From Actinomycetes bacterium (GTDB lineage Bacteria; Actinomycetota; Acidimicrobiia; Spongiisociales; UBA5794), in contig JAHEEL010000001.1 in assembly GCA_024640745.1 (NCBI GenBank), positions 1-33,956 on the forward strand: a stretch of 33,956 nucleotides of DNA, written 5' to 3'. This document shows positions 1-20,363 of the stretch, piece by piece. The position numbers and the translations under genes were made by a program. The notes beneath the pieces are model-generated. The model saw only the letters and a list, made by a program, of their open reading frames with translations, did no database searches and was not told the DNA's origin. Position 1 is the stretch's first letter. Each line of letters opens with the position of its first letter.

Positions 1-21
1 TGGTCCGAGTGTTGAGCAAGC

Positions 22-1353
22 TCATGAGGCGGCCGCTCCAGTGGCCGCCCCCCCTGCTGCCGCTGCGACCTGGCGCTTGAAGCCACTGCGCCTCCGATCG
101 GTGCTGGCCCGGGAGTAGAGGTGCCTCCCGAGCTCGACGAGACCGTTCTCCAAGGCCTCGACCGACATGTTGAGCGGCCGGTAGTTCACATCGAACAGCG
201 TGCACAGTTCCCACGCAGCGGGTTCGAGGATGCGACCCTCGGCGAGCAATCGGGCGTACAACGGCGTGCCCGGAAACGGCGTCAACACGGTGATTTGCAC
301 ATCGAACGGATCGGTCTCTTCAACGAAGGCAGCCACCGCATCGAACACACCGGGACCGTCTCCGTCGAGACCGAGGATGAAGCACGCATTCAGGGCGATG
401 CCGTGCGATTGAATCATCTCCACCGCAGCCCGGTAGCGATCGACCCGGCCATGCTTCCAGTTGCGCTTCGTCTCAACACCGTCCAGCGCCGCAGCATTGG
501 GACTCTCGAATCCGACGAGAATCTCGCGACAGCCCGCCTCGCTCATCATGGACAGCAGCCCCGGATCGTCGGCGATCGATACGTCGGTCTCCGTGAACCA
601 CCGGACACCCTGGGATCCAATCGCTGCTACGAGCTCCCGAGCGTGGTGACGATTGACGAATGAGTTGTCATCGGATAGCTCAACGAACGGGTCCGCCCAG
701 ATCGACTTCATCGCCTCGATTTCCGTGGCTACCTTCCGGGCCGGCTTCGTCTCGTAGCGCGGCGTGAGGAGGATCGACGAGGCGCAGAACTCGCACCGCC
801 ACGGGCAGCCGCGCTGGGTCTGAACTGTGAGCCGGTTGTACCGGGCAGGATCGAGGAGGTCGTATCGAGGGATCGGGGCATCGGCGAGATCGAAGGGCTC
901 TTCCGCGCGATAGACCGGCCGTGCGGTCCCAGCCTCGACGTCGGCGAGCAGCCGCCTCCACACCGGCTCCCCCTCGCCCGCAACGACGATATCGCAGTGC
1001 CCCAGCGCCTCTTCGGGAACGGCCGTGGCATGGAGACCACCGATCACCGTTTGCACCCCCGCCGCGCGGAATCGGTCGGCAAGGGCATAGCACTCCTTCG
1101 ACTGCGCGGTGTAGGTCGAGAAGGCCGCGAGATCGCACTCCGGCAGGGGTTCCATGCCTGCGATGTCGTCGACCTCGTAGTACTCGACGTCGTGACGGTC
1201 ATCCGTGAGCGCCGCAAGCGTGAGGAGGCCGAGACTCGGAAGCGACGCAATCGTCTTGCCCCGCTCCACGAACCCCGGGAGGCTCAGACCGAGCGCCGTC
1301 AGCTCGGGATTGTGGGCTCGAACACCAGACATCGCGATGAGCGCAATACGCAT
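22..1353 (-). CDS. B12-binding-domain radical SAM protein (class B type; substrate unknown)
   Basis: ORF 22..1368. The N-terminal region (MRIALIAMSG...VIGGLHAT) resembles a cobalamin-binding Rossmann-like domain. CPWRCEFC (CxxxCxxC) lies at 784..807. ATG at 1353 is preceded by GAGGAGGG (1359..1366 on the minus strand) and is preferred over the TTG at 1368. Confidence 0.85.
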   Translation of the reverse strand: MRIALIAMSGVRAHNPELTALGLSLPGFVERGKTIASLPSLGLLTLAALTDDRHDVEYYEVDDIAGMEPLPECDLAAFSTYTAQSKECYALADRFRAAGVQTVIGGLHATAVPEEALGHCDIVVAGEGEPVWRRLLADVEAGTARPVYRAEEPFDLADAPIPRYDLLDPARYNRLTVQTQRGCPWRCEFCASSILLTPRYETKPARKVATEIEAMKSIWADPFVELSDDNSFVNRHHARELVAAIGSQGVRWFTETDVSIADDPGLLSMMSEAGCREILVGFESPNAAALDGVETKRNWKHGRVDRYRAAVEMIQSHGIALNACFILGLDGDGPGVFDAVAAFVEETDPFDVQITVLTPFPGTPLYARLLAEGRILEPAAWELCTLFDVNYRPLNMSVEALENGLVELGRHLYSRASTDRRRSGFKRQVAAAAGGAATGAAAS

Positions 1354-1494
1354 CGGTTCCCTCCTCAACCTTCAAGGTACCGCGCCTACTCCACCCGTCG
1401 ATAGGGTCTTTCCCCGATCCCCGGTGCCGCAGCGGTGCCCGCGTGACACGAAGGGCACTCCGACCTGTGGCATCAACGTCGCGCGCGGGCCAGA

Positions 1495-2508
1495 ATGGGA
1501 CCCATGCCGGCGAACCTGACGCCCGACTACAAGAAGGCCGAGGCTGCGTACCGGCGAGCGAGGGATCCGAACGAGCGCCTCGAACTGCTCCAGGAGATGC
1601 ACCGGACGATCCCGAAGCACAAGGGAACGGAGCACCTGCGAGCCGATATCAAGACCAAGATCAAGGAGTTGCGAGACGAGCTTGCCGGCCCGACGAAGGG
1701 AGGGGCCAGGAGCGGACCGCCGACCTTCATCCGCCCCGAAGGCGCGGCGCAGGTGGCAATCATCGGACCGCCAAACTCCGGCAAGTCGTCGCTCCATGCC
1801 GCGCTGACCGGCTCCCACACGCACGTCGGGGCCTATCCGTTCACCACGCAGTTCCCTGAGCCGGGGATGCTCGACATCGACGACGCGCAGATCCAGCTGG
1901 TCGACCTGCCGCCGATCTCGTCACAACACCCGATTGCGTGGCTCGGCAACACCCTCCAGTCCGCCGACGGCGCGTTGTTGGTGGTCGACCTCGGCCAGCC
2001 GGGCTGCGTCGAGATGATCGTGGAAGCAAGAGAGATTCTCGCCGAGCGGCGTGTGACGCTCACCGGGACGTGGGACCTCAGCCGGTCCTTGAATGACGAC
2101 CCGTTCGCGATTCGTCTCCCCACGCTCCTGATCGCAAACAAGGCGGACGCCATTCCCGCCATCGAGGAGGATCTGGACGTCTGTCGCGAGCTTGGCGACC
2201 TCCATTTTCCGACCATGGTCGTATCGACCGAGACCGGCGACGGCATCGACGCCATCGGGCCGTGGCTCTTCCGCAATCTCGAGATCGTACGTGTGTACAC
2301 GAAGGTCCCGGGCAAGGAACCGGACATGGACCGTCCCTACACCGTCCGGCACGGCGCCACGGTGGGAGACGTGTCGTTGCTCGTCCACCGGGATCTGGCG
2401 GCGTCGTTCCACCACGCCAGGATCTGGGGCCAAGGATCGTACGACGGGCAGCAGGTAGGGAAGGAACACGTCGTCGAAGACGGTGACATCCTCGAAATCC
2501 ACGCCTGA
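1495..2508 (+). CDS. DRG/Obg-family GTPase with C-terminal TGS domain
   Basis: G1 GPPNSGKS at 1765..1788, FTT as G2, NKAD at 2137..2148. The C-terminal VRVYTK...VGKEHVVEDGDILEI is TGS-like. The N-terminal KHKGTEHLRADIKTKIKELRDEL resembles archaeal/eukaryotic DRG. Alternative ATG at 1504. Confidence 0.8.
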   Translation: MGPMPANLTPDYKKAEAAYRRARDPNERLELLQEMHRTIPKHKGTEHLRADIKTKIKELRDELAGPTKGGARSGPPTFIRPEGAAQVAIIGPPNSGKSSLHAALTGSHTHVGAYPFTTQFPEPGMLDIDDAQIQLVDLPPISSQHPIAWLGNTLQSADGALLVVDLGQPGCVEMIVEAREILAERRVTLTGTWDLSRSLNDDPFAIRLPTLLIANKADAIPAIEEDLDVCRELGDLHFPTMVVSTETGDGIDAIGPWLFRNLEIVRVYTKVPGKEPDMDRPYTVRHGATVGDVSLLVHRDLAASFHHARIWGQGSYDGQQVGKEHVVEDGDILEIHA

Positions 2509-2612
2509 TTCCGCGTACCCGCCGCTCGCCAAGGCCTGTCTGGCGTTCCAGGCCGTCAGGGCGGGCGCCGCCGGCATCGATCGGCCGGTTCCCTACGTGG
2601 TACCGTCCCGCG

Positions 2613-4418
2613 ATGGACGCCCCACAGCTCGTTGTGATCGGGACGCCGTCGGTCGATCGCATCGAGATACGCGGCGATTCGCTGCCGACCGTTGGTGGAT
2701 CAGGCTTCATCACCGCCGTCGGAGCGCGCCTCGCCGGGATCACGGTGGGACTCGTCGCTCGGGTGCCGCGGCGACTTCCGGACGGCATCGCCGCGGCGTT
2801 CCGACCCGGCGGTATCGACCCCGGTGGCCTCGCCGTGGTCGAAGGACGTCTGCCGGGCTTTCACATCTCCTACGACGAGGCCGAGCGTGCCACCTACTTG
2901 ACGATTGCATCCGGCGAGGAGGCCGACGTGTGCGGCGCCGACCTGCCGCGGCGATGGCTCAATGCCGCATGGATCCACCTCGGCCCGCTGGCCGCGACCA
3001 CGGGCATGCAGATCCGCTTCCTAGAGCAGGTGCTCGACCGCGGCTATCGGGGCGGCCTGTCCGCCGGCACGTTCGGACGCGCCGCCGCCGTGGAGCCGGA
3101 GCTCGTACGAGACCTGTTCACTCGGGTCGACCTCGCTTTCCTCAACCGGGAAGAAGCCGATCGCATCTACCCCGACGGCATGCCAGACGGCCGGACCGTC
3201 TGCGTCACCGACGGAGGCGCCGGGGCGCGCCGCTGGAACGGATCCGAATGGACAACCTATCCGACGACACCAGTCACTCCGTTCGATCCAACGGGTGCAG
3301 GCGACGCGTTCGTCGGCGGCTACCTGGGCGCCATGCTCGACGGCGACTCCGATCCGGTGGGCAACGGACTCCGCACTGCCGCGATCGCCATCGACGGCCC
3401 GGGGGCGGCCCCGCTGGTCGAACAACTGCCACAGCATGCAGCGGTCGTCCCGGAACCGCTCCCCGAAGGCGACCCCGTGGCCGTCGTGGACCGCTCCCGA
3501 ACCGATGCGATCGCCGCCGCGCTCCGAAGCGCTGCAGATGCTGCGGCGCTCGATTTCTGCGGCTTCCCATTCCCCGAGGAGGGAGATCCCGGCGCCATCG
3601 AGACGATGGCCATCGGAACGCTGCACCAGTACGGCTTCTGGGAGGGCACCGATCATGGCTACGGCGGGCCGATGTGGGCGACGATCGACGGGATTCGGCG
3701 GAAGGGCTCCGACTTCATCTGGCATGCGTTCACGAGAGCAACGTCTGCCGATCCGCACATCCTGGACGCGGGCCGTCTTGCCGCCGAGCCGCTGCTCTTC
3801 GATGCGATCTGTACCGACGACGACGGGGTGTGCCCGATCCCGGACGTCGGATCGCACCGGGTGCTCCAGCAGGCGTACGGCGCGGTCATCGGTTCACATG
3901 GCGGAATGCAATCGATCGTCGAGCAGGCAAACGAGGCGGCGGACCCGCTCGCAGCTTTCCTCGATTCGATGGCGGTGGTACCCGGCTTCGGCGAGGATCG
4001 CCTCGCAAAGAAGGCAAACCTTCTGGCGCTGATCCTCGCCAATCGGCCGGAGCGCTTCCTCAGACTGGGCGGTCCAACGGCGATCGCTCCAATCGTCGAC
4101 TACCACATCATGCGAACAACGATGCGGACGGGGTGCGTCTCGATCGTCGACAACGACCTCCGCAACCGTCTTGTTGATCGTGCATGGATCGACGCGGAAC
4201 CCGAAGCCGGGATTCGACTCGCTGCGCGTGACGCCATTTGTGACCTCTGCACGAGCTCCGGTCTCGATGTCGGCAGCGTCGACGGGTTCCTGTTCAGCCT
4301 CGGACGAAGCATCTGCCTCGAGACGGAACCTCCGAAATGTGGTGAATGCCCGCTCGCATTCGCGTGCGCGCAGGAAGTCGAGCTGTTCCAGCCGATCTAT
4401 CGAACAACCGCCTATTGA
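2613..4418 (+). CDS. Fusion protein: N-terminal PfkB/ribokinase-family kinase plus C-terminal QNG1(DUF2419)/HhH-GPD-like N-glycosylase domain with a 4-Cys Fe-S cluster loop
   Basis: PfkB motifs: TVGGSGFITAVGARLAG and DPTGAGDAF (3285..3311). C-terminal half: LHQYGFW, PGFGEDRLAKKANLL (HhH-like), IVDYHIMRT (Asp496 at 4098..4100), C568-x7-C576-x2-C579-x5-C585 (4314..4367), and a C-terminal ...IYRTTAY. Confidence 0.7.
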   Translation: MDAPQLVVIGTPSVDRIEIRGDSLPTVGGSGFITAVGARLAGITVGLVARVPRRLPDGIAAAFRPGGIDPGGLAVVEGRLPGFHISYDEAERATYLTIASGEEADVCGADLPRRWLNAAWIHLGPLAATTGMQIRFLEQVLDRGYRGGLSAGTFGRAAAVEPELVRDLFTRVDLAFLNREEADRIYPDGMPDGRTVCVTDGGAGARRWNGSEWTTYPTTPVTPFDPTGAGDAFVGGYLGAMLDGDSDPVGNGLRTAAIAIDGPGAAPLVEQLPQHAAVVPEPLPEGDPVAVVDRSRTDAIAAALRSAADAAALDFCGFPFPEEGDPGAIETMAIGTLHQYGFWEGTDHGYGGPMWATIDGIRRKGSDFIWHAFTRATSADPHILDAGRLAAEPLLFDAICTDDDGVCPIPDVGSHRVLQQAYGAVIGSHGGMQSIVEQANEAADPLAAFLDSMAVVPGFGEDRLAKKANLLALILANRPERFLRLGGPTAIAPIVDYHIMRTTMRTGCVSIVDNDLRNRLVDRAWIDAEPEAGIRLAARDAICDLCTSSGLDVGSVDGFLFSLGRSICLETEPPKCGECPLAFACAQEVELFQPIYRTTAY

Positions 4419-4423
4419 GCCCA

Positions 4424-4477
4424 CCGCAGAACAACGACACGCCGCGAATGTCGGTTCGCGGCACCTCCATTCTGCGG
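4424..4477. terminator. Nested inverted repeats between convergent genes (candidate bidirectional terminator)
   Basis: Inner stem GCCGCGAA (4441..4448) / TTCGCGGC (4455..4462). Outer stem CCGCAGA (4424..4430) / TCTGCGG (4471..4477). No clear U-tract. Confidence 0.35.
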
Positions 4478-4522
4478 GCCCACGAAGCCGACCATGACGT
4501 CGCCAACCCTGGGTAGGCGGAT

Positions 4523-4879
4523 CTAGCCTTCCTCGACGATTTCCTCGGCGGCCTCTTCCAGGACTTCGGTGAGTTCCTCTTCGGCTTCTTCGAGCGCCGC
4601 TTCCTCTTCGACCTCTTCGATCGCCTCGTCGATAGCCTCTTCGACCATGTCGGCGACTTCGGGGGACCGCTTCACAGCTGAGATGACCGCGTCCTGGATC
4701 TGGGCGACCTGCTCGTCGGACATCCGGCCCGCCAGCTTCAGATCGAGGTACTCACGGATCTCCTCTTCCGACATCCCCGAGAACTTCTGTTTCTGATTGA
4801 CGACGAGCGCCACGAGGGCGCCGATTCCGGCGGCGATGATGATGAGAATTAGCGTCCTGAGTGAGAACAGTCTGCGCAT
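4523..4879 (-). CDS. Hypothetical single-pass membrane protein with a highly acidic Glu/Ala-rich C-terminus
   Basis: ATG at 4879 is preceded by GGAGG 5 nt upstream. The ORF-track start at 4909 has no RBS. One TM segment (LILIIIAAGIGALVALVV) followed by an EEAxEE-rich tail. Confidence 0.6.
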   Translation of the reverse strand: MRRLFSLRTLILIIIAAGIGALVALVVNQKQKFSGMSEEEIREYLDLKLAGRMSDEQVAQIQDAVISAVKRSPEVADMVEEAIDEAIEEVEEEAALEEAEEELTEVLEEAAEEIVEEG

Positions 4880-4943
4880 GGGACCTCCATTGCGGTTTTG
4901 CGAGCCCACATCCTAACGAATGGAAGCAACAGTCAATCTGCGG

Positions 4944-5192
4944 TCAGTTTCGGGCGCGGCGGCGCATCACCCAGCGCCAGACCCAGCCGAGCACCGCACC
5001 GAGGAGAAGGAAGACCCCGACCACGATCCAGAGCGGCAACGTCACGCCGAAGAACAGGAACTCGATCTCGACTCGCTCGCGATTCTGGAATACGAAGATG
5101 CCGAGGATGACCACCACCGCGACCGTGACGATGATTCCGATCCCGATTCGGTCGTTCGGCGTATGGATGTTCTGTGGTTGTTCGTCCGTCAT
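4944..5192 (-). CDS. Small two-TM membrane protein, LapA/DUF1049-like
   Basis: 82 aa, two hydrophobic helices, Arg-rich C-terminal WRWVMRRRARN. A GGGAGAG RBS-like purine tract sits upstream of the ATG at 5192. Confidence 0.6.
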   Translation of the reverse strand: MTDEQPQNIHTPNDRIGIGIIVTVAVVVILGIFVFQNRERVEIEFLFFGVTLPLWIVVGVFLLLGAVLGWVWRWVMRRRARN

Positions 5193-5398
5193 GGACTCTC
5201 CCTCGCCCAGTCTGAGTTCATGGTATCAGAGGCCCCGTCTGCGGAAATCCCGGCGAATTGCACGCGTGTGATTTATCGTCTGGCCACCGTGGAGACTCTA
5301 GGAATCATCATTGCGTGGCTGCTGATCGGCCTCATGGTGACCGCATCGGCCGCCCTCTTCTGGGTGTCCCAGCGCTAGCCGGCCGACGAAAACGCGAA

Positions 5399-5454
5399 GC
5401 AGCCGGGATCTGAGATCCCGGCTGCTCATCGATCTCCCCCGGATCACCCGGGGG
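5399..5454 (-). terminator. Two tandem GC-rich hairpins downstream of infA
   Basis: GCAGCCGGGATC (5399..5410) / GATCCCGGCTGC (5414..5425), a perfect 12-bp stem with a 3-nt loop, followed on the minus strand by TTCGCGTTTTCG. A second hairpin, CCCCCGG-ATCAC-CCGGGGG, lies at about 5436..5454. Confidence 0.6.
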
Positions 5455-5466
5455 TCTGGTTGTTCT

Positions 5467-5691
5467 CTATCGGTGCCTCCACACGATGCGACCCTTGGTC
5501 GGGTCGTAGGCCGAAACCTCAACCTCGACCTTGTCGCCGGCGATGATTCGGATCCCGCGACCGCGCCGCATCTTTCCCGATGCTCGCGCAACGATCTCGA
5601 GGCCCGAGTCGAGTCGTACCTTGAACTCAGCGTTCCGGAGCGTCTCGACGACGAGGCCCTGTGTGCGGAATGTGTCGTCGCCTCGTGCCAT
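5467..5691 (-). CDS. infA: Translation initiation factor IF-1 (divergent S1-like OB fold)
   Basis: 74 aa. GKMRRGRGIRIIAGDKVEVEVSAYDPTKGRIVWRHR matches the IF-1 signature GKMR..IRI..GD.V.VE.S.YD...GRI..R. Confidence 0.85.
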   Translation of the reverse strand: MARGDDTFRTQGLVVETLRNAEFKVRLDSGLEIVARASGKMRRGRGIRIIAGDKVEVEVSAYDPTKGRIVWRHR

Positions 5692-5700
5692 GTGGTGGTG

Positions 5701-5946
5701 CTACCGACGGGGACGGGCCTCGTTCACGGTAAGGGCCCGGCCCTCATGCTCGTATCCGTTGAGTTCCTCAATCGCCTTGGTGCCCTCGGCGGCATCCGGC
5801 ATCTCGACGAAGCCGAAACCGCGTGAGCGGCCGGTGTCGCGATCATTGATGATCGCGGCGGAGTCGACGGTGCCGTACTGCGCAAAGAGCGACTCGAGAT
5901 CGGCGTTCGTAGCGCGGAACGAGAGGTTCCCCACAAAGATGTTCAT
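5701..5946 (-). CDS. RRM-type RNA-binding protein (RNP-2 IFVGNL, RNP-1 RGFGFVEM)
   Basis: ATG at 5946 with GGAGG 9 nt upstream. The ORF-track extension to 5997 has no support. 9-nt gap to infA downstream, suggesting an operon. Confidence 0.9.
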   Translation of the reverse strand: MNIFVGNLSFRATNADLESLFAQYGTVDSAAIINDRDTGRSRGFGFVEMPDAAEGTKAIEELNGYEHEGRALTVNEARPRR

Positions 5947-6201
5947 TTCTACTGCCTCCAATGGGCATCGGCTCACGGACCACTGTGGTCCGCACACGGG
6001 CGGGTTCTGTCGACCTGCCTCGAACCAACAAGTGCCACGGCGGCAGCGGACATCCCTCTGTGCACGGGAACAATAGCCTCCCTTCGGTCAACTCGGCGAT
6101 CCAATACCGATGCCGGAAGCGGCGGCAACGCCCAGGCGTGCCCGCCTCAACCTCCCGGACGACCACCCGGCCCGCGCGCGCCCGCCGCTAGCGTCGGGTC
6201 C

Positions 6202-7542
6202 ATGTCGACGGAAACGCCCATGCGCAACGACCAGCGCACGATTGTCGGGTGGGCGATGTACGACTGGGCGAACTCGGCCTACATCACGGCCGGGAGCCTG
6301 ATCTTCGCCATCTACTTCGGCGACACGATCTATCCGGAGGACGGTCTCTCGGTGTTTGGCGCAACCATCGGCGCCGAGGCGTTCTTCGGTATCGTCGTGG
6401 GCGTCGGCGCGCTCCTCTTGTTCCTTGCCATGCCCATCCTCGGGGCCATCGCCGACTATTCGAACGCAAAGAAGCGAATGCTCCGAGCGTTCGCCTACTC
6501 GGGAGCGACCTTTGCCGTCCTGACGGCGGTTCCCGGCGTGGGTGACCTCGGTCTCGCGGTCTTCGTCGCGCTCATGGCGCAGCTGGGGTTCGTTGCGGCG
6601 AACGTCATGTATGAGGGTTTCCTCCCTGAGTTGACCACTCCGGACACCATCGACCGCGTCTCCGCCACGGGTTTCGCCTACGGCTACGCCGGCGGCGGCA
6701 TCCACCTGGTCCTCTCGCTCGTGCTTCTGTTCTTCGCCGAGCCGCTCGGCATCGCCGAAACGACCGCCCAACGACTCGTCATCGTCTCGGCCGGGGTCTG
6801 GTGGGCCACGTTCGCAACCCTTTCGTTCTCCCGCCTCCACGATGCCGGCCGCGCGCATACCCTGCCGGCCCGAGACCAATCGGTTCCGCGCCCGCTGGCC
6901 TATGCCCGACTCGGCCTCAGCCGAACCTGGCGAACGACACGCCAGCTCATCACCTTCCCCCAGCTGCTGCTCTTCGTCGTAGCCTTCCTGTTCTACAACG
7001 ACGGTGTCCAGACGGTCATCAAGATCACACCGGTCTTCGCCTCAGAGACCCTCGACCTCTCGGCGACGACCATCGCTGCTGTGTTCGTGATCATCCAACT
7101 CGTCGCGTTCTTCGGTGCGCTCGCGTTCGGGCGGCTGGCCGAGCGCGTCGGCGCCCAGCGGGCGATCCTGGTGTCGATCGCCGGCTGGACGCTCGTGACC
7201 GTTGGCGGCTACTTCATGCCATCAGGGCAACCGGCGCCGTTCCTCGTCCTCGGTGTGTTCGCCGGCCTTGTCCTCGGCGGTGTTCAGGCGCTGTCTCGGT
7301 CGCTGTACGGCTCGATGATTCCGGAGGAAGCATCGGCTGAGTTCTTCGGCTTCTACTCGGTGTTCTCCAAGTTCAGCGCCATCTTCGGCCCGCTCATCTT
7401 CGCCGCCGTCGACATCGCAACCGGCTCAACGCGGCTCGCGATCCTCTTCCTCGCGGCGTTCTTTCTGATCGGCGGATCGCTCCTCACGGTCGTCGACGTC
7501 GAAGCGGCGCGGGCCTCGCGGAACCGGTGGGTCTTGGACTGA
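6202..7542 (+). CDS. MFS transporter, UMF1/Atg22-like family
   Basis: 446 aa, about 12 TM segments. The N-terminal WAMYDWANSAYIT motif is typical of the UMF1/Atg22-like subfamily. Confidence 0.75.
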   Translation: MSTETPMRNDQRTIVGWAMYDWANSAYITAGSLIFAIYFGDTIYPEDGLSVFGATIGAEAFFGIVVGVGALLLFLAMPILGAIADYSNAKKRMLRAFAYSGATFAVLTAVPGVGDLGLAVFVALMAQLGFVAANVMYEGFLPELTTPDTIDRVSATGFAYGYAGGGIHLVLSLVLLFFAEPLGIAETTAQRLVIVSAGVWWATFATLSFSRLHDAGRAHTLPARDQSVPRPLAYARLGLSRTWRTTRQLITFPQLLLFVVAFLFYNDGVQTVIKITPVFASETLDLSATTIAAVFVIIQLVAFFGALAFGRLAERVGAQRAILVSIAGWTLVTVGGYFMPSGQPAPFLVLGVFAGLVLGGVQALSRSLYGSMIPEEASAEFFGFYSVFSKFSAIFGPLIFAAVDIATGSTRLAILFLAAFFLIGGSLLTVVDVEAARASRNRWVLD

Positions 7543-7605
7543 ACGGATCATCGGCATCGCGGGTCCGAACACGCATCACAAGGGGCCGAGCTAGGTTCCT
7601 GCCCT

Positions 7606-9801
7606 GTGAGCGAGTCCACAGCCGCCCCGTCGCCGGAGCCCTCCGGAAGCCTTCGTCGATCGCTGGGCCTCTATGCGGTGCTGACCATCTCGATCGGCGC
7701 CATGATCGGTTCGGGCATCTTCGTGCTGCCCGGCCTTGCGTTCAAGATCGCCGGACCCTCAGTCGTCCTGGCGTTCTTCCTGGCCGGCATCGTCGTGTTG
7801 CCCGCGGCGCTTTCGAAGGCAGAAATGGCCACGGCGATGCCCCAGGCCGGCGGCACCTACCTGTACATCGATCGAGCGATGGGGCCCCTGATGGGGACCA
7901 TCGCCGGCTTTGGGGTGTGGTTCTCGCTCGTGTTCAAAGCATCGTTCGCCCTGGTCGGGCTCTCCGCATACCTCGAGTACTTCGTGCCCCATCCCGAACG
8001 ACCGGTTGCTGCTCTGCTTGCGCTCGTAATGATCGGAGTGAATCTGGTCGGCGTGAAGCAATCTGCCAGATTCCAGATCGTGGTGGTCTCAGGCGTAATC
8101 ATCGTTCTGATCGCATTCGTGGCAATCGGGTTACCGCGTGTCGAGTCGTCGGCCTTCGACCCATTCCTTGCCCATGGCATTCGAGGTCTGCTATCGGCCA
8201 CCGCCGTCGTCTTCGTGTCGTACGCCGGTGTCACGAAGGTGGCCTCGATCGCAGAAGAGGTTCGACGACCTGAGCGCACCATTCCGCGCGGGATGCTGAT
8301 CTCCGTCGGCTTCATGATGCTGCTCTACCCCGCCATCGTGGCCGTGATCGCAGGGGTCGCTCCCGCCGAAGAGCTCGCCACCACCGAAACGCCGATGACG
8401 CTCGCAGCGGAGCAATTCCTCAGCCCGATCGGTGTGGCGCTCACCGCAGGGGTAGCGGTCATCGCCCTGCTGTCCATGACCAACGCCGGGATCATTGCGT
8501 CCTCGCGGTACCCGTTCGCGATGGCTCGCAACTCCCTCGCCCCTCATCAATTTGCAGCAGTCGGACGCCGATCGGGCGGACCAATCATCAGCATCGCCGT
8601 CACCGGTTGTGTTCTCCTCGCGCTCGTCCTCTTCGTCCCACTGATCGAGCTTGCGAAGCTTGCCTCTGCGTTCCAGCTCCTGGTGTTTGCTCTCATCAAT
8701 CTCGCCTTGATCGCATTTCGAGAAGCTCACCTGGACTGGTATTCGCCTGTGTTCAGATCACCCCTGTATCCGGTCACCCAGATCTTCGGGATCGGCTCGG
8801 CGCTCTTGCTCCTCACACAGATGGGAACGATCCCGCTGCTCGGTGCCTTGCTCTTCGTCGTCGCAGGGGCGGTCTGGTATCGGGTCTTCGGCGGGTCGCG
8901 AGCGCCAAAAGATTCGGCGACTCGTGATGCGCTGCGCATGCGAGAGAATGCTCGCCTGGTACAGACCAGCGCGTCGGCCGTCGCCGCCGGCGGGCGCAGG
9001 CACATTCTGGTGCTCGTTCGGCGTCCGACCCGGCCCAGCCGACAGCACACGCTCTTCCGACTGGCATTGCGCCTTGCAGCATCGCCCGGCGGTCGAATCC
9101 ACGTGATCAACTTCGACGCAAGGACTCGGCGGATGATCCCCACCGACGACGATCGAGCCCGGGCCCGAATGCTCGGGATCGAGGTCACAGCCGAGCAGTA
9201 CACGGACGAGGATCGGCGTGGCATGGTCCACGCCTTCGTCGAACGGGAAGGTGTCGACCTCTTCATCGCCGATCTGCCGCAGGAGCTGCGCGCAACCCGC
9301 CATGTCAATCGCGACTTGCGGTGGCTGCGCGAGCACCTCACCTGCGACTCGGTGTTCCTCCGCAACCGCGAGGTCGAGCAGATCGACCGCATCGCAATCC
9401 TCGGAACGGGTGGACCCTACGACCCGGTGAAGATCGAGATGGCCGATCACATTGCGCGCTACGAACACGCCGAGATTCGCTTCGTGCACCTGACACCCGT
9501 CGACACACCGCCGGCTCAAGCCGATTCCATCCACCGATACCACGGTGAGCTCGGCGAGACGCTCACGGTCCCGTGGGACGACCGGGTCCAACCCGCGGAG
9601 CACCTCATCGAGACGCTCACGGGTCTCTCCCGCGGCGCGAATCTCGTCATCCTGGGAGCCCCGACGCACCGATTCCACGTCGTAACGGATCTCGCCGACA
9701 GCATCGCCGAAGCGGTCGATTGCCCCGCTTTGCTCATCCACACACCAACCCTGGAGAAACCCGGCATCGTCAAACGATCGGTCCAGTGGTTGATCGAGTG
9801 A
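7606..9801 (+). CDS. APC-superfamily amino acid permease fused to C-terminal tandem USP-like domains
   Basis: GTG start. About 440 aa of polytopic permease (GAMIGSGIFVLPG motif), then about 280 aa of soluble region with two USP-like repeats (HILVLVRRP...; RIAILGTGGPYD...LVILGAP). Confidence 0.75.
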   Translation: MSESTAAPSPEPSGSLRRSLGLYAVLTISIGAMIGSGIFVLPGLAFKIAGPSVVLAFFLAGIVVLPAALSKAEMATAMPQAGGTYLYIDRAMGPLMGTIAGFGVWFSLVFKASFALVGLSAYLEYFVPHPERPVAALLALVMIGVNLVGVKQSARFQIVVVSGVIIVLIAFVAIGLPRVESSAFDPFLAHGIRGLLSATAVVFVSYAGVTKVASIAEEVRRPERTIPRGMLISVGFMMLLYPAIVAVIAGVAPAEELATTETPMTLAAEQFLSPIGVALTAGVAVIALLSMTNAGIIASSRYPFAMARNSLAPHQFAAVGRRSGGPIISIAVTGCVLLALVLFVPLIELAKLASAFQLLVFALINLALIAFREAHLDWYSPVFRSPLYPVTQIFGIGSALLLLTQMGTIPLLGALLFVVAGAVWYRVFGGSRAPKDSATRDALRMRENARLVQTSASAVAAGGRRHILVLVRRPTRPSRQHTLFRLALRLAASPGGRIHVINFDARTRRMIPTDDDRARARMLGIEVTAEQYTDEDRRGMVHAFVEREGVDLFIADLPQELRATRHVNRDLRWLREHLTCDSVFLRNREVEQIDRIAILGTGGPYDPVKIEMADHIARYEHAEIRFVHLTPVDTPPAQADSIHRYHGELGETLTVPWDDRVQPAEHLIETLTGLSRGANLVILGAPTHRFHVVTDLADSIAEAVDCPALLIHTPTLEKPGIVKRSVQWLIE

Positions 9802-9853
9802 GCAGCCTCGGCCGCACCCGGCCCGGCCCAGAGCCGATCCGCTCGCGCCGGGG

Positions 9854-11044
9854 TCAGTCGGCGGCGGCCCTCCAGGCTTCCCGCATCTTCACCCTGCCGC
9901 CGGTACGCAGGAGGGCCCCGGCGTAGACACGCGATCCGATCCACACCAGCGCCACAACGGCTGCCACCGTCCCGACTACCGCCACGGCGATCTCCCACGG
10001 GGCGGCCGCTCCGTCCGCAATGCGTACCGGCATCACGAACGGGGCCCACGGCGGCAACATCGATGCAACCGTCGGAACGAGGCCGTCGGGGGACTCGGCT
10101 GCGATCAGGGCGATGAAGTACCCGGGGAGGATCAGCGCAATCGGGAGCATCATCGCACCTTGGAGATCCTCCTGGCGAGAGACCGTCGAACCCACGGCCG
10201 CATAGAGGAAGGCATAGAACGCGTAGCCGAGGACGAACCAGAACACCACACCGGCGATGATCGGCAGCCCGATCGCAGCGAGGTCGATGTCGCCGAGATC
10301 CGCCATCTGTGCCGATACATACGCAGCCCCGGCCAACAAGAGCAGTTGCACCAGTCCGAGGGCGCCGATGCCGATGACCTTTCCGACGAGGACCTGCCAG
10401 GGTCGAACCCGGGCGAGGACAACCTCGACGACCCGGTTCTGTTTCTCCTCCACGGTTCCCATTGCCACGAACTGGCCGAACATGAGGATCGAGATGTAGA
10501 GCGCGATGGTCCCGACGAACGCACCAACGCGTTTGGCATCCTCCTCCGGATCACCCTCCTCCAGCGTGACGACGTCGTACGGCACGGGTGCGATGATCTC
10601 CGTGACTTGGTCGGCCGAGAGTCCCAGGCTCGCAAGCGTTGCAGACTTGACAGCATTGGTGAGCGCTCCGCCGACAAGCGCCAGGAGTCTCGAGGACACG
10701 TCGGTGTGGAAGACGATCTCGTCCCCATCGACGAGTGCCACTGCCACGTCGCCATCGGTGACGGCCTGCTCGGCAGCGACTCCATCGGGGAATCGCACGA
10801 TCGAGATGTCGATCTCGAGCACCGCCGCCTGGTCGGACAGGGCCCGGTCGATTCCGGGTGGCTCTTCCCCGGCAATACCGATCCTTGTTGCCTCCGCTTC
10901 ACCACCGGCAAGGAGGCTCACGATCGGACCTACGGCGAGAATCGCCAGCACGAGCAATCCCATGGTGACCAGGAACGGCTTGCTGGTCGCCCGCGTCGCA
11001 AATTCTCTCTTCGCCAGAATGGCAACCTGGCGCCACCGGTTCAT
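9854..11044 (-). CDS. ABC-2 type transporter permease (NatB-like)
   Basis: N-terminal TM, a large extracytoplasmic loop, then 5 C-terminal TMs. Its start overlaps the stop of the upstream ATPase gene by 4 nt. Confidence 0.7.
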   Translation of the reverse strand: MNRWRQVAILAKREFATRATSKPFLVTMGLLVLAILAVGPIVSLLAGGEAEATRIGIAGEEPPGIDRALSDQAAVLEIDISIVRFPDGVAAEQAVTDGDVAVALVDGDEIVFHTDVSSRLLALVGGALTNAVKSATLASLGLSADQVTEIIAPVPYDVVTLEEGDPEEDAKRVGAFVGTIALYISILMFGQFVAMGTVEEKQNRVVEVVLARVRPWQVLVGKVIGIGALGLVQLLLLAGAAYVSAQMADLGDIDLAAIGLPIIAGVVFWFVLGYAFYAFLYAAVGSTVSRQEDLQGAMMLPIALILPGYFIALIAAESPDGLVPTVASMLPPWAPFVMPVRIADGAAAPWEIAVAVVGTVAAVVALVWIGSRVYAGALLRTGGRVKMREAWRAAAD

Positions 11045-11922
11045 GATTCCACCGCCTCACGGAAGAGATCGGTGAGCCTCGGCGGCTCGAACATGAAGGT
11101 GTTCACCGTCCCCACGGCGCCGGCCGCCGCAAGCAGATCGCCGATTGGAGCGTCACCGTCGACGATGCAGTGCGACCGCCCCTGGGCATCGACCACCGTG
11201 GCGTCGGCCCCGGGTGGAACCCACGGTTGCCCGTCCACGTCGATCGTCAAACGTCGTTTCGATGAGCGGTTCCTGATGTCGTCGAGCGATCCGCTCAGCA
11301 CGACTCGGCCCTCGTTGATGATCGCGACGTCCTCGCACACGTCTTCGACCAGATCGAGTTGATGGCTCGAGAACACGATCGTCACTCCGCCCGACGCGAG
11401 ATTTCGCAGCGTTCCGGTCAGCGAGGCAACGCCCAGCGGATCCAAACCCGCAAACGGCTCGTCGAGGATCAGGAGCTCGGGGTTCGGTGCGAGGGCTGTC
11501 GCAAGCTGGACGCGCTGCTGGTTTCCGTGCGAGAGGTCTTCGAGCTTGGCAGATCCGCGGTCCGCCAAACCGAGTGCGCCAAGCCAGTGGTCGACCGCTT
11601 CGGTTGCCTCCTGCCTGCTGAGCCCCGACAGCCGTGAGAAGTGAATGAGCTGATCCCGGATCTTCATCTTTGGATAGAGACCGCGTTCCTCCGGCATATA
11701 CCCGAACCGGAGCCGCTCCTCCGGGCCGACCGCGCCGCCATTCCAGGACACACTCCCGGAATCGGGACGAACGAGTCCGAATACGACCCGCATGGCGGTC
11801 GTCTTGCCTGCGCCGTTCGGTCCGAGAAACCCGAGGATCCGGCCGCGCTCAACAGTGAACCCAGCCCCGTCGAGGGCGACGACATCGCCATACCGCTTCT
11901 TGAGGTCGACGAGCTGCAGCAT
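11041..11922 (-). CDS. ABC transporter ATP-binding protein (NatA-like)
   Basis: Walker A GPNGAGKTT, signature LSHGNQQR, Walker B LLILDEP. ATG at 11922 is preceded by GGAGGG. The ORF-track start at 11982 is rejected. Confidence 0.9.
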   Translation of the reverse strand: MLQLVDLKKRYGDVVALDGAGFTVERGRILGFLGPNGAGKTTAMRVVFGLVRPDSGSVSWNGGAVGPEERLRFGYMPEERGLYPKMKIRDQLIHFSRLSGLSRQEATEAVDHWLGALGLADRGSAKLEDLSHGNQQRVQLATALAPNPELLILDEPFAGLDPLGVASLTGTLRNLASGGVTIVFSSHQLDLVEDVCEDVAIINEGRVVLSGSLDDIRNRSSKRRLTIDVDGQPWVPPGADATVVDAQGRSHCIVDGDAPIGDLLAAAGAVGTVNTFMFEPPRLTDLFREAVES

Positions 11923-12036
11923 CCAGGTCCCTCCAGAGAGAGCATTCTGCCGGTGTGGGTCGCTCGACCCAAATCCCGGCAATTGAGGGAATTCCTAAAG
12001 AACGCATCGCAGAACCGCCGATGTAGAAAGGGAACC

Positions 12037-12104
12037 GGTGGGACGGCCGGCGGGGTAAGTAGTACCCATGCGGGATGATCCAACCAAGACCGCATCGGTC
12101 CACC
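12037..12104 (-). other. Candidate structured leader (three-way-junction-like nested inverted repeats) upstream of the NatAB-like operon
   Basis: Outer stem GGTGGGAC (12037..12044) / GTCCACC (12098..12104). Inner hairpins GGGTA (12053..12057) / TACCC (12063..12067) and ATGCGG (12068..12073) / CCGCAT (12090..12095). Confidence 0.25.
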
Positions 12105-12175
12105 TCACGAGGTTCAGGGAGCCCCTGCTTTGGCGGGGGCTTCGCCTTTGGCCCATACCCTGCTTCGCAGATGAC

Positions 12176-12210
12176 GCAAGAGCAGAGACTGAAGACACGA
12201 GGCACGAGAC
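12176..12210 (-). repeat. Heptanucleotide tandem array (minus strand: GTCTCGT GCCTCGT GTCTTCA GTCTCTG CTCTTGC)
   Basis: Five consecutive 7-nt units read directly from the sequence. The array starts 31 nt downstream of the histidine kinase stop codon and is in the sense orientation. Confidence 0.6.
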
Positions 12211-12240
12211 CGGCAGCCGGAATGCCGGACCCCTCTTCGG

Positions 12241-13542
12241 CTAGCCCCTGATGGATTGCGGCAGCCGCACCACGACTCTCGCACCGCCAAGGTCACCGGG
12301 ATCGGCGAGGTCGAGCGTCCCACCCGAGGCCTCGGCAATGCGCCGCACGATGTCGAGCCCAAGTCCCGTGGAGTCGACGGTCGACGCTCCACGCTCCACG
12401 GCATCGGGTTGATCGATGCCGGCGCCGCCGTCTTCGACTTCCAGGATGAGGCCGTCGTTCTCCGCTGCGGCAAGTCGCACCGCGAGCGGCGCCCGCTCAT
12501 CGGTGTGGGCGAACACGTTCTCCAACAGCGCATCGATCATTGCCGCCGCATCGACCCGGGGAACGTCGACCCAGCCGCTCTTACCACCAACCGACACCGA
12601 AACCGCGAATGAGCGCCCTTGCTCGTCGCTCAGCGCCGACCAGTAGCGAGCCCGATCCTCGACCACCTCGGTGAGGTTGCATCCGGGATCGACCTCCGTA
12701 CGCACCGGCCTCCGACCTTCCCCGATGATGAAGTTGGCCGTCCGCTCGAGGTCGTCGAGGTCGTCGACGATCCGGTCGGTCGCGCGTCCCGGGGGAAGCG
12801 CCTCGGCATCCAATTTCGCCGCCGTCAGGGGTGTTCTGAGCCGATGTGCGAGATCGGCCGCCGTCTCTCGCTCCTCTCTCAACAGGTGCTCGACCTGCTC
12901 CGCAAGGAGGTTGAATTCTGCACCCACCTCCTCTATCTCCGGCGGGCCCCCTGGTACGACCCGCGCGCTGAAATCCCCCGCCTTCAGCCGGGCAGCCGCG
13001 TCCGAGAGCTCACGGACCGGACGCACGATCGAGCGGCCGAAGCGGTCCGCCGCAAGAATGGACAACCCAACCAGCACGATGCCGAGCCCACCGAGGATCA
13101 GCCACGAGCGCCAAACGCCACGCGTCAGCTCTTCCGAGGGGGCAACCACTCGAACGACCGTGAGCTCGCCGTCTGCCCGGGCAACCGGGACGTAGACGGC
13201 TTCGCCGTCGGGCACGGAGGAGCGGAAGGCGGTTCCGGATCGTGCCGCCTCGAGGTCCTCTCCCTGCGGAACCTCAAGACCCGCGACCCTTCCGTCGGGG
13301 AAGATCAGAGTTGCACCGAGCTCGACGAGGCGCGGCTCCCCGATTGCCCCGACGACGGCATCACTCGACGTCGAAGGGCCGATGACGGCGACCAGGCGGG
13401 CGACGCTTTCGGCGTCTCGTTCGGCACGCGTGACGGCGCGGTCGAAGGCAAGCGCGCTGACCATGATCCCGAGCGGCACGAGAAATGCAATGACCACCAT
13501 CGAGGTCACCCCGGCCGTCACGAGGATCAGGCTCCGCCTCAC
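12241..13542 (-). CDS. Sensor histidine kinase (TM-sensor-TM-HAMP-HisKA-HATPase_c)
   Basis: H-box LAHRLRTPLTA, N-box LLENVFAHT, G1 VEDGGAGI, G2 GLGLDIVRRIA. 4-nt overlap with the response regulator gene upstream. Confidence 0.9.
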   Translation of the reverse strand: MRRSLILVTAGVTSMVVIAFLVPLGIMVSALAFDRAVTRAERDAESVARLVAVIGPSTSSDAVVGAIGEPRLVELGATLIFPDGRVAGLEVPQGEDLEAARSGTAFRSSVPDGEAVYVPVARADGELTVVRVVAPSEELTRGVWRSWLILGGLGIVLVGLSILAADRFGRSIVRPVRELSDAAARLKAGDFSARVVPGGPPEIEEVGAEFNLLAEQVEHLLREERETAADLAHRLRTPLTAAKLDAEALPPGRATDRIVDDLDDLERTANFIIGEGRRPVRTEVDPGCNLTEVVEDRARYWSALSDEQGRSFAVSVSVGGKSGWVDVPRVDAAAMIDALLENVFAHTDERAPLAVRLAAAENDGLILEVEDGGAGIDQPDAVERGASTVDSTGLGLDIVRRIAEASGGTLDLADPGDLGGARVVVRLPQSIRG

Positions 13543-18809: not shown

Positions 18810-20363
18810 ATGAACATCGAAGAGCTTCAGGTTCGTGCGCGGGCAATCGTCAACGACCCGCGACTCTCATACCACCAGCGACGCCACTATCTCGCGGGCC
18901 TGGCGGAAGAAGCGCTCGACTACCCGGCCCTGTCAGCCGACGCGGTCGACGCGTTGAACAAGCGAATCATCTGCGACCTGTACGAGGGCCACGCCCCATA
19001 CCGCGGCCGCTATATCCTTCCGGACTACGCGAAAGCGTTGCGCAACGGCTCGACGTTCCTCGAACTCGATCCTCCGGAGACCCTCGACGACGCGCTGAAC
19101 TTCCTTCTCATTCTGTACACGCAGGTGCCGTCGATCACCGGCTACCCCGTCTACCTCGGTGATCTCGACAAGGACCTGGCACCGTACGCCGAGGGTGTTT
19201 CGGACGAGCACCTCTACCAGTCGCTCAAGCGTTTCTGGATCGCCCTGGACCGAATGCTGCCGGACGGGTTCGTTCACATGGACCTGGGTCCGCGCGACGG
19301 TCGCATCATCCGCATGGTGTTTCGGATCGAGCGAGAACTGCTCCAGGTGGTTCCCAACCTCACGTTCAAGGTCGATCCGAACCTCACACCGGACGACCTG
19401 ATCCGGGATGCGGTCGAGACGGTGTTCGAGACCGCGAAGCCGCACTTCGTCAATCACCCCATGATGATCCGCGATTTCGGCGACGACGCCTATGCCTCGG
19501 TCAGCTGCTACAACTCGCTGCGGATCGGTGGCGGCTCCCATACCCTGAACCGCCTGAACCTCAAAGAAGTGGCCCTCGTCCACAACGGCGACACCGAGGC
19601 CTTCTTCGAAGAGACGCTTCCGCACTACGTCGAGCTCAATGCCGAGCTGATCGAAGCGCGCATCCGCTACCTCGTTGAAGACGCGAAGTTCTTCGAGCAC
19701 GACTTCCTCGCCAGGGAAGGCCTCATCTCCCTCGACCGGTTCTCCGCGATGTACGGGGTCTACGGGCTGGCCGAATGCGTGGACACGCTCATGGAGAACG
19801 CCGGCAAGTCGGGCCGCTACGGCCACGACGACGAGGCGAACGAACTGTCGTACCGAATCGTGCGCGCCGTGGCGGATCAAGTCGCTGCCCGGCCGATGCC
19901 GTATTGCGAGGGCAACGGCGGCCGCTGCATGCTGCACTCGCAGTCGGGCATCGACGTCGACGTCGACGTGACGGCGGGGACACGCATCCCGATCGGGTCG
20001 GAACCTTCGATGTTCGAGCACATCGCCTGTGTCGCCCCCCACCACGATGTCTTCATGTCCGGCGTCAGCGACATCTTCCACGTCGAGGACACGGCGCGGC
20101 GGAATCCGCAGGCCGTCGTCGACATCATCCGCGGAGCGTTCGAGGCAGGGATGCGTGACTTCACGTTCAATCTCGACACCAACGGGTTCATCCGTATCAC
20201 CGGATATCTCGTCCGCAAGTCGGACATCGCGGCATTTGCAGATGAGGGAGGCCGGCACGGTTCGACCGTGTTCGCGGCCGGCTCCGTCGAGAACTCCCAT
20301 GTCCTGGATCGTGCGGTGAAGCGCGTCCTGATCCGTGAACACCATACGCGGCCGCCTCAATAA
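18810..20363 (+). CDS. yjjI: YjjI-family (DUF3029-like) short glycyl-radical enzyme
   Basis: 517 aa; E. coli YjjI is about 516 aa from memory. C-terminal FIRITGY with Gly465 at 20202..20204. AGGAG 6 nt upstream of the ATG. Followed immediately by an activase gene. Confidence 0.7.
   Translation: MNIEELQVRARAIVNDPRLSYHQRRHYLAGLAEEALDYPALSADAVDALNKRIICDLYEGHAPYRGRYILPDYAKALRNGSTFLELDPPETLDDALNFLLILYTQVPSITGYPVYLGDLDKDLAPYAEGVSDEHLYQSLKRFWIALDRMLPDGFVHMDLGPRDGRIIRMVFRIERELLQVVPNLTFKVDPNLTPDDLIRDAVETVFETAKPHFVNHPMMIRDFGDDAYASVSCYNSLRIGGGSHTLNRLNLKEVALVHNGDTEAFFEETLPHYVELNAELIEARIRYLVEDAKFFEHDFLAREGLISLDRFSAMYGVYGLAECVDTLMENAGKSGRYGHDDEANELSYRIVRAVADQVAARPMPYCEGNGGRCMLHSQSGIDVDVDVTAGTRIPIGSEPSMFEHIACVAPHHDVFMSGVSDIFHVEDTARRNPQAVVDIIRGAFEAGMRDFTFNLDTNGFIRITGYLVRKSDIAAFADEGGRHGSTVFAAGSVENSHVLDRAVKRVLIREHHTRPPQ

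Follow-up and report, generated by a model that had tools for sequence, protein, structure and literature searches.

A PfkB kinase fused to a Qng1-like glycosylase in uncultured bacteria: a candidate two-step enzyme for modified nucleosides

A stretch of 33,956 nucleotides from an Actinomycetes bacterium (assembly GCA_024640745.1, contig JAHEEL010000001.1; the whole stretch, 65% GC, is called the window here) contains a single open reading frame (ORF) that joins a PfkB-family kinase to a divergent relative of the glycosylase Qng1. Qng1/QNG1 is the enzyme through which queuine, a micronutrient, is recovered in eukaryotes and some bacteria. The ORF (2613..4418, forward strand) starts with ATG and encodes 601 residues, and its start codon is backed by homologues from many loci that begin at the same position. 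On balance we favor a bifunctional enzyme whose kinase would make a nucleoside 5′-monophosphate and whose glycosylase would then yield the base and ribose-5-phosphate, a reading built on sequence comparison and predicted structures. It is preferred because the catalytic residues of both halves appear intact, the basic phosphate site seems at least partly kept, the C-terminal plug is kept, the fusion is old, and there is the precedent of Qng1, for which a 5′-monophosphate is the preferred substrate (PMC9881137).

The fusion is real and old. One genome per species was scanned for 185,579 species; 360 had a relative, and the best 80 loci, all from metagenome-assembled genomes (MAGs), were examined. 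In ~60 of these 80, from several phyla, a family-specific PfkB domain and the glycosylase share one ORF. The closest relatives are Acidimicrobiia/Actinomycetota (up to 73% identity), which makes that class the probable origin of the window, and the other taxa listed are Myxococcota, Verrucomicrobiota/Kiritimatiellia, Marinimicrobia, Chloroflexota and Gemmatimonadota, the Verrucomicrobiota/Kiritimatiellia genes being standalone and ~320 residues long. Pairwise identities of the two halves correlate with each other (r = 0.88 over 1,830 pairs). A first-pass annotation of the window, which had proposed the fusion, called for such a phylogenetic survey and named a frameshift artefact, visible as separate genes in close relatives, as one finding that would refute it; the survey found a genuine and widespread architecture.

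The frameshift artefact was rejected after inspection of the sole 'split' relative (protein P0179, locus L081), which lies on a contig where neighboring genes are fragmented as well. In this syntenic 96-kb ENA contig the fusion gene, an ATG22 transporter, an amino-acid permease and a GTPase are all in pieces within positions 1-12972, and the second ORF of P0179 is in frame with the C-terminal domain of the window protein only for the last 73 residues. This indicates that the breaks are assembly indel errors, not biology.

Fused genes also occur in co-assembly MAGs titled Rickettsiales, Enterobacterales or Bifidobacterium (L021, L022, L025, L027, L030, L032, L041, L048 and others). Their C-terminal domains are ~43-54% identical to that of the window protein and rank among entries with Acidimicrobiia, Myxococcales and Deltaproteobacteria titles; the taxonomic labels of these MAGs look unreliable.

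All motifs reported in the first-pass annotation were recovered in place within the ORF: DPTGAGDAF at residues 225-233, LHQYGFW at 337-343, PGFGEDRLAKKANLL at 457-471, IVDYHIMRT containing D496, and a tail ...IYRTTAY whose last residue, Y601, is followed directly by the stop codon. D496-Y497-H498, K466-K467, four Cys and the tail positions Q593-P594..R597-T598..Y601 are invariant in 21 homologues; in 61 full-length fused proteins, whose identity to the window protein is 30-75%, their conservation is at least 90%. Taken together, the features of this ORF lie far beyond chance.

Profiles and modeling place the C-terminal domain on a diverged branch of the Qng1 lineage rather than among EndoIII-type DNA glycosylases, on the basis of fold ranking, a chain of profile matches and conserved active-site residues. 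This agrees with the first-pass annotation, which had likened the domain to QNG1/DUF2419. Its suggestion to search hidden Markov models (HMMs) of each half separately succeeded for the PfkB half and failed for the other: residues 291-601 (the C-terminal 311) match no Pfam or NCBIfam model above cut-off, and the window protein matches neither Pfam Q_salvage (PF10343), even at an E-value of 10, nor HhH-GPD (PF00730). Q_salvage is matched by four of 16 close homologues (best 1e-5), and some clade members exceed its 25-bit threshold (P0062, 34 bits; P0141, 37 bits). A word-indexed search with residues 291-601 returned only 29 proteins, mostly metagenomic fragments that also carry PfkB, five of them with precomputed PF10343 annotation. 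A profile built from 16 of the 29 (A2) found human QNG1 as its best match among solved structures (7ugk, E 0.0038). When 1.84 billion cluster representatives were searched exhaustively with a profile, 754 relatives emerged, 114 of them below 1e-30, with sizes of ~600 and ~320 residues and, appearing from ~1e-30, a third group of ~335 residues. The profile of this third group (A3) covers Qng1 of S. thermophilus (StQng1) almost end to end, at 5e-10, completing the chain from A2 through A3 to StQng1.

The third subfamily (P0141-P0175) has features of its own: an 'AICHxT' motif replacing NFxFW, a terminal Tyr, and a separate conserved Cys pattern (C280, C288, C310 and C316 in P0141 numbering). A further protein, P0170 (795 residues), has a Q_salvage-type domain at ~500-750 preceded by ~500 residues that match no Pfam model, and may represent another fusion partner in the superfamily.

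The structure prediction and fold comparison that had also been proposed put Qng1 first. The AlphaFold2 model of the C-terminal domain has a mean predicted local distance difference test score (pLDDT) of 89.8 and a predicted template-modeling score (pTM) of 0.89, with four beta strands in the N-lobe as in the beta insertions of Qng1. In a Foldseek search of the PDB the top 11 matches are all Qng1/QNG1 (E ~1e-9; template-modeling (TM) score 0.73-0.77; root-mean-square deviation ~3.1 Å; ~305 aligned columns at 17% identity), and a second tier comprises EndoIII, MutY, NTHL1, AGOG and OGG1 at TM 0.3-0.5. The presence of EndoIII and MutY in that tier, together with a Cys loop resembling theirs, might suggest an EndoIII/MutY-type DNA or RNA base-excision glycosylase, with the kinase being regulatory or acting on a different molecule. 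Some mismatch glycosylases adjoin C5 DNA methylases, and at two loci the standalone Qng1-like gene does have a C5 cytosine DNA methylase that ends 20 bp upstream of it (L042 1089-2483 and L052 1381-2775); however, these two standalone genes are 92% identical and so represent one lineage, to which the methylase neighbor is confined. A TM of 0.43-0.51 to EndoIII/MutY against 0.77 to Qng1, the Qng1 beta-strand insertions in the model, a C-terminal Tyr kept at exactly the end in 151 of 157 proteins and the lack of an HhH-GPD Pfam match in the window protein make a base-excision enzyme most unlikely.

Residues 23-305 of StQng1 were aligned with 27 sequences of the window protein's putative Fe-S clade (described below) and 15 third-group sequences; numbering agrees with the published work, from which the residue roles are taken (PMC9881137). 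The mapped pairs D231 to D496, Y232 to Y497, K199 to K466, F75 to F342, I203 to L470, E267 to E531, R271 to R535, D298 to D557 and W302 to F/W561 are each at least 85% conserved. Among the 27 Fe-S-clade sequences D496 is found in 27, K466 in 26, Y497 in 25, D557 in 26, and Phe or Trp at position 561 in 26. In Qng1, D231 is the nucleophile, D298 anchors the 7-deazaguanine base, and E267 and R271 hold the C-terminal tail, whose terminal carboxylate contacts the ribose 3′-OH; a C-terminal tag abolishes activity, and the C-terminal Tyr occupies the 3′ side of the ribose, a feature that accompanies inactivity on tRNA or 3′-phosphates (PMC9881137). At the phosphate site K233 corresponds to H498 (invariant), Q306 to R565 (invariant, placed by motif register only) and R80 to P353; the basic residues H498, R565 and K364 are all invariant, K364 adjoining the backbone phosphate contact. 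Judged from these alignments, the catalytic chemistry and the recognition of a guanine-type Watson-Crick edge appear to be kept, and the pocket for the 7-side chain appears to have been rebuilt as a polar, acidic one.

A second distinctive feature is a loop of four Cys, invariant in the first 21 homologues. Loop and tail were counted in 157 members complete to the C-terminus: the exact pattern C-x7-C-x2-C-x5-C is present in 145 and a relaxed pattern in 152, exactly 16 residues separate the fourth Cys from the C-terminus in 144, and Tyr is the terminal residue in 151. Judged by register, ~18 residues have been inserted here, after the last helix (D557..R565) and ahead of the terminal FQPxxRTTxY; the span from Q306 to Y323 in StQng1 is only 17 residues. 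The [4Fe-4S] cluster loop of EndoIII and MutY has the pattern C-x6-C-x2-C-x5-C, and the first-pass annotation had compared the two loops. The Cys are conserved among homologues and look like that loop in pattern and position, and weak model matches fall at the loop, to the MutY model TIGR01084 (region 178-208, E 0.11-0.31) and, in six of 16 homologues, to PF10576 (E 1.4 or worse). The four Cys most likely bind a [4Fe-4S] cluster, and we infer that such a cluster would fix the tail that brings the terminal carboxylate to the active site. Qng1 is described as metal independent (PMC9881137); the four invariant Cys argue against the present clade being metal-free like it.

The kinase half had been called a canonical PfkB/ribokinase-family domain, and this stands, with the refinement that it looks nearer to a nucleoside kinase than to ribokinase. 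Pfam PfkB matches residues 27-265 at 42.1 bits (cut-off 25.8), and S13, D15, G28-G29, N178, E181 and T227-G-A-G-D231 are conserved in the 61 full-length fused proteins and invariant or nearly so in the 21-sequence cross-phylum alignment, so the kinase is by all appearance catalytically intact. Its closest PfkB outside the fused family is only 29-31% identical. The best solved relative of the kinase profile, end to end and at E 1e-22, is 3kd6, deposited as 'nucleoside kinase from Chlorobium tepidum in complex with AMP', the substrate being a structural-genomics label; it is followed by the nucleoside kinase MJ0406 and then by assorted sugar and riboside kinases. The NCBIfam ribokinase models give 14-27 bits, where their cut-offs would require ~300-340.

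The order of the two reactions could also be reversed, the glycosylase freeing base and ribose and the PfkB domain, as a ribokinase, trapping the sugar in the form of ribose-5-phosphate. In the fold search ribokinases come almost level with nucleoside kinases (the matches also include E. coli pseudouridine kinase, 7vva), and StQng1 shows some activity on the nucleoside queuosine (PMC9881137). Against E. coli ribokinase the diol-binding Asp (here D15, which binds ribofuranose), GG, NxxE and the catalytic Asp all align, but the contacts to free ribose do not: K43, N46 and E143 are replaced by A/S, I/Y and V/L/I. The E. coli reference sequence used here was checked by its length and by the published positions of N14, D16, K43, N46, E143 and D255, with which it agrees. 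These replacements favor a nucleoside over free ribose as the kinase substrate, which does not thereby identify the base. With the best sequence-profile matches being nucleoside or riboside kinases, and with the invariant H498, R565 and K364 remaining at the Qng1 phosphate site, we regard the reverse order as unlikely.

In the favored order, with phosphorylation first, the PfkB domain would use ATP to phosphorylate a free modified purine nucleoside at its 5′-OH, and D496 of the Qng1-type domain would then hydrolyse the N-glycosidic bond of the 5′-monophosphate, with K466, Y497, F342 and the C-terminal carboxylate of Y601 helping in base release. The products would be free base and ribose-5-phosphate, and the role would be breakdown or salvage of a modified nucleoside, with the [4Fe-4S] cluster on the four Cys holding the C-terminal tail in place. 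Since D557, the Asp for reading N1/N2, is conserved, the base is expected to be guanine-like. The pocket on its 7-side is predicted to be polar and acidic (S366, D/E367), not aromatic, which points to a substrate that is possibly of 7-aminomethyl-7-deazaguanine type or another modified guanosine. The linker between the domains is the least conserved region, the segment 268-315 varies from 30 to 58 residues in length, and it is disordered in the model, features that would make it a flexible tether; we see no fixed channel. With domains joined in this way, the benefit of fusion would be proximity and fixed stoichiometry, and no tunnel is predicted.

Several observations weigh against this two-step scheme. 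The standalone Verrucomicrobiota/Kiritimatiellia copies have no family PfkB gene within 10 kb by the family-specific HMM, so the glycosylase can presumably work without this kinase. The full-length AlphaFold2 model has a pTM of 0.55 and no confident interdomain geometry, the domains themselves being confident, and a fold search with the full model cannot separate nucleoside kinases from ribokinases. R80 of the Qng1 phosphate pocket maps to Pro. The Qng1 pocket for the cyclopentenediol of queuine (P46, W48, H53, Y93, W94, W299) is not conserved: Y93 becomes Ser/Ala, W94 becomes Asp/Glu, W299 is variable (Gly in the window protein), and P46 and W48 fall in gaps, so that the 'GYW' motif common to bacterial and human Qng1 reads 'GSD' here. 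No tgt, que gene, QPTR/QrtT or other queuosine gene lies within the window, and the 80-locus neighborhood analysis found no tgt, que or queuosine-precursor transporter gene near the fusion or standalone genes. An Rfam scan of the window and eight diverse loci found no preQ1 riboswitch and no other family, and among the 80 loci no neighbor is conserved across phyla, synteny being seen only within clades.

Some of these points bear most directly on a narrower version of the scheme, put forward in the first-pass annotation, in which the nucleoside is queuosine itself, passing through queuosine 5′-monophosphate to queuine and ribose-5-phosphate and so feeding a queuine-accepting Tgt. Qng1 is the closest family by both fold and profile, its only characterized activity is on queuosine and queuosine 5′-monophosphate (PMC9881137), and the acidic residue 367 could pair with the secondary amine of queuosine, taking over from the cation-pi Tyr in Qng1. 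On the other side, W48, Y93, W94 and W299, which Qng1 enzymes keep from bacteria to human, are missing here, and the loci examined offer no queuosine-related neighbor or riboswitch, so the queuosine assignment was not upheld and we consider it possible but doubtful. A transporter encoded beside a bacterial qng1 is reported to carry preQ0/preQ1, not queuosine (PMC11130926), which suggests that bacterial Qng1 homologues may not all act on queuosine. From the residues lining the pocket, the substrate of the two-step enzyme may be queuosine bound differently, a preQ1-type nucleoside, or another modified guanosine; as a speculation, the acidic residue 367 would be a good partner for a 7-deazaguanine with an aminomethyl group or for a base with a positive charge, as in 7-methylguanosine (m7G).

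The first-pass annotation knew of no kinase-QNG1 fusion and no Fe-S-containing QNG1, and likewise we found no description of either in the searchable literature. Relatives carry public names such as 'carbohydrate kinase family protein' or 'hypothetical', and some already bear both Pfam domains in precomputed annotation, making the architecture visible in databases. The kinase producing queuosine 5′-monophosphate has been described as unidentified (PMC9881137), and a route of kinase then Qng1 is therefore already accepted logic; an ancient fusion of a Qng1-like domain with an apparently intact PfkB domain would be Rosetta-stone evidence for that route and singles out one kinase family for testing. 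With its conserved four-Cys loop, the clade would become the first in the Qng1 lineage to contain Fe-S, linking mononucleotide glycosylases with Fe-S DNA glycosylases and suggesting a role for a cluster, structural or regulatory, in placing a catalytic C-terminus. Given the altered pocket, the substrate of this clade may be some other modified guanine or 7-deazaguanine nucleoside, and known nucleoside salvage would then be broader among the abundant uncultured bacteria of soils and waters. A bolder picture, which we offer only tentatively and think rather improbable as a whole, is of an unrecognized widespread clade in which a [4Fe-4S] cluster clamps the active-site tail and the PfkB domain supplies the first kinase to be identified for the route from nucleoside through 5′-monophosphate to Qng1, the clade possibly bridging EndoIII/MutY and cluster-free Qng1. 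If true, base salvage would be sensitive to oxygen, iron or redox state, and PfkB-family kinases would be candidates for the unidentified eukaryotic queuosine kinase.

Table 1. Features of the fusion gene, in window coordinates
Feature	Position	Strand	Evidence
Whole gene, PfkB kinase/Qng1-like glycosylase fusion, 601 residues, stop included	2613..4418	+	Architecture in ~60/80 loci
PfkB (ribokinase-family) kinase domain, residues 1-274	2613..3434	+	Pfam PF00294 E 9e-11; 3kd6 profile E 1e-22; Foldseek 3kd6 TMt 0.77; pLDDT ~90
D15, equivalent of ribokinase D16 (ribose 2′,3′-diol)	2655..2657	+	Invariant 21/21
G28-G29, PfkB GG motif	2694..2699	+	Conservation in alignments
N178-R-E-E181, NxxE motif (Mg/phosphate)	3144..3155	+	N178 and E181 invariant
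DPTGAGDAF, anion hole and predicted catalytic base D231	3285..3311	+	T227-G-A-G-D231 invariant; D231 aligns with E. coli ribokinase D255
Probable flexible interdomain linker, residues ~275-299	3435..3509	+	pLDDT <50 at 275-285; least conserved segment
Qng1/DUF2419-like helix-hairpin-helix (HhH) nucleotide glycosylase domain (predicted), residues 300-601	3510..4415	+	AlphaFold2 and Foldseek
G341-F342-W343; F342 equivalent to StQng1 F75 (ribose stacking)	3633..3641	+	Residue alignment
K364-G365-S366-D367, in place of the Qng1 D-G-Y93-W94 queuine-pocket motif	3702..3713	+	Ser/Ala 27/27; Asp/Glu 23/27
K466-K467 of HhH motif; K466 equivalent to StQng1 K199	4008..4013	+	Invariance and residue alignment
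D496-Y497-H498: putative catalytic Asp (D231), ribose-stacking Tyr (Y232), phosphate-contact position (K233 to His)	4098..4106	+	Invariant
D557-G-F-L-F561-S-L-G-R565: putative base-anchoring Asp (D298), stacking aromatic (W302 to F/W), Arg at phosphate-binding Q306 position	4281..4307	+	R565 by motif register only
C568-x7-C576-x2-C579-x5-C585, probable [4Fe-4S] cluster loop	4314..4367	+	Invariant Cys; exact spacing 145/157
C-terminal tail FQPIYRTTAY; Y601 equivalent to StQng1 Y323 with terminal carboxylate	4386..4415	+	Tyr end 151/157

Around the fusion gene (Table 1) the window order is kept only among close Acidimicrobiia. Upstream by 105 bp and on the same strand is a DRG/Rbg-like GTPase (1495-2508, +; MMR_HSR1 and TGS domains), which stays upstream, mostly directly, in 11 Acidimicrobiia loci including the window and is not kept in other phyla. 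Downstream is a 128-residue protein (4523-4909, -) that matches no Pfam model and has a single predicted membrane helix and a very acidic tail rich in Glu; this neighbor is conserved on the downstream side in 10 loci including the window. Further downstream are a LapA-domain protein, an RRM protein, an ATG22-type MFS transporter and an amino-acid permease. Neighbors elsewhere include SmpB, nadD-rsfS, RtcB (an RNA ligase, directly after the standalone gene of L046), a Lyase_1 enzyme and the C5 DNA methylase; outside Acidimicrobiia the neighborhoods have an RNA or translation flavor that is faint at best.

Three other features of the window were recorded. At its edge is a B12-binding radical SAM enzyme (22-1368, -), syntenic in L081 and several Acidimicrobiia loci. 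The amino-acid permease (7606-9801, +; 731 residues) is covered by Pfam at 20-410, its C-terminal ~320 residues having no annotation. The stretch 18810-21192 (+) encodes a YjjI-like glycyl radical enzyme (PF11230, E 1e-198) and, after it, a radical-SAM activase with ferredoxin-type inserts, a pair that looks like anaerobic-type chemistry in an apparent Acidimicrobiia genome.

The nearest known system is Qng1/QNG1 (DUF2419, PF10343; 7u07, 7u91, 7ugk), the queuosine-5′-monophosphate N-glycosylase. The two have in common a two-lobe HhH fold with beta insertions, the catalytic Asp-Tyr, the HhH Lys, the ribose-stacking Phe, the base-anchoring Asp, the tail-holding Glu/Arg and the exact terminal Tyr, and by these residues a mononucleotide substrate is a probable further likeness. 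The window protein differs in its ~17% identity and lack of a Pfam match, in a queuine pocket changed to gap, Ser, Asp or variable positions, in the 18-residue four-Cys loop in the tail, in the changes of K233 to His and Q306 to Arg, and in the kinase fusion. With EndoIII/MutY it shares the HhH superfamily and a catalytic-type Asp after the HhH, and its C-terminal loop resembles theirs in place and pattern (Cys-x(6-7)-Cys-x2-Cys-x5-Cys); unlike them it has x7 instead of x6 at the first Cys spacing, Qng1-type beta insertions and C-terminal Tyr plug, and a fused small-molecule kinase. The kinase half resembles PfkB nucleoside kinases (3kd6; MJ0406, 2c49) in fold, GG, NxxE and the TGAGD catalytic loop, and 3kd6 also in a short lid, with 13 residues from the diol-binding Asp to GG, although identity is only ~20-30%. 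PsuK, a PfkB kinase, makes pseudouridine 5′-monophosphate, from which the glycosidase PsuG releases base and ribose-5-phosphate. This is the same kinase-then-glycosidase logic, applied to a nucleoside of RNA turnover; PsuG differs in having an unrelated fold and no Fe-S cluster, and in acting on a C-glycosidic bond and another base.

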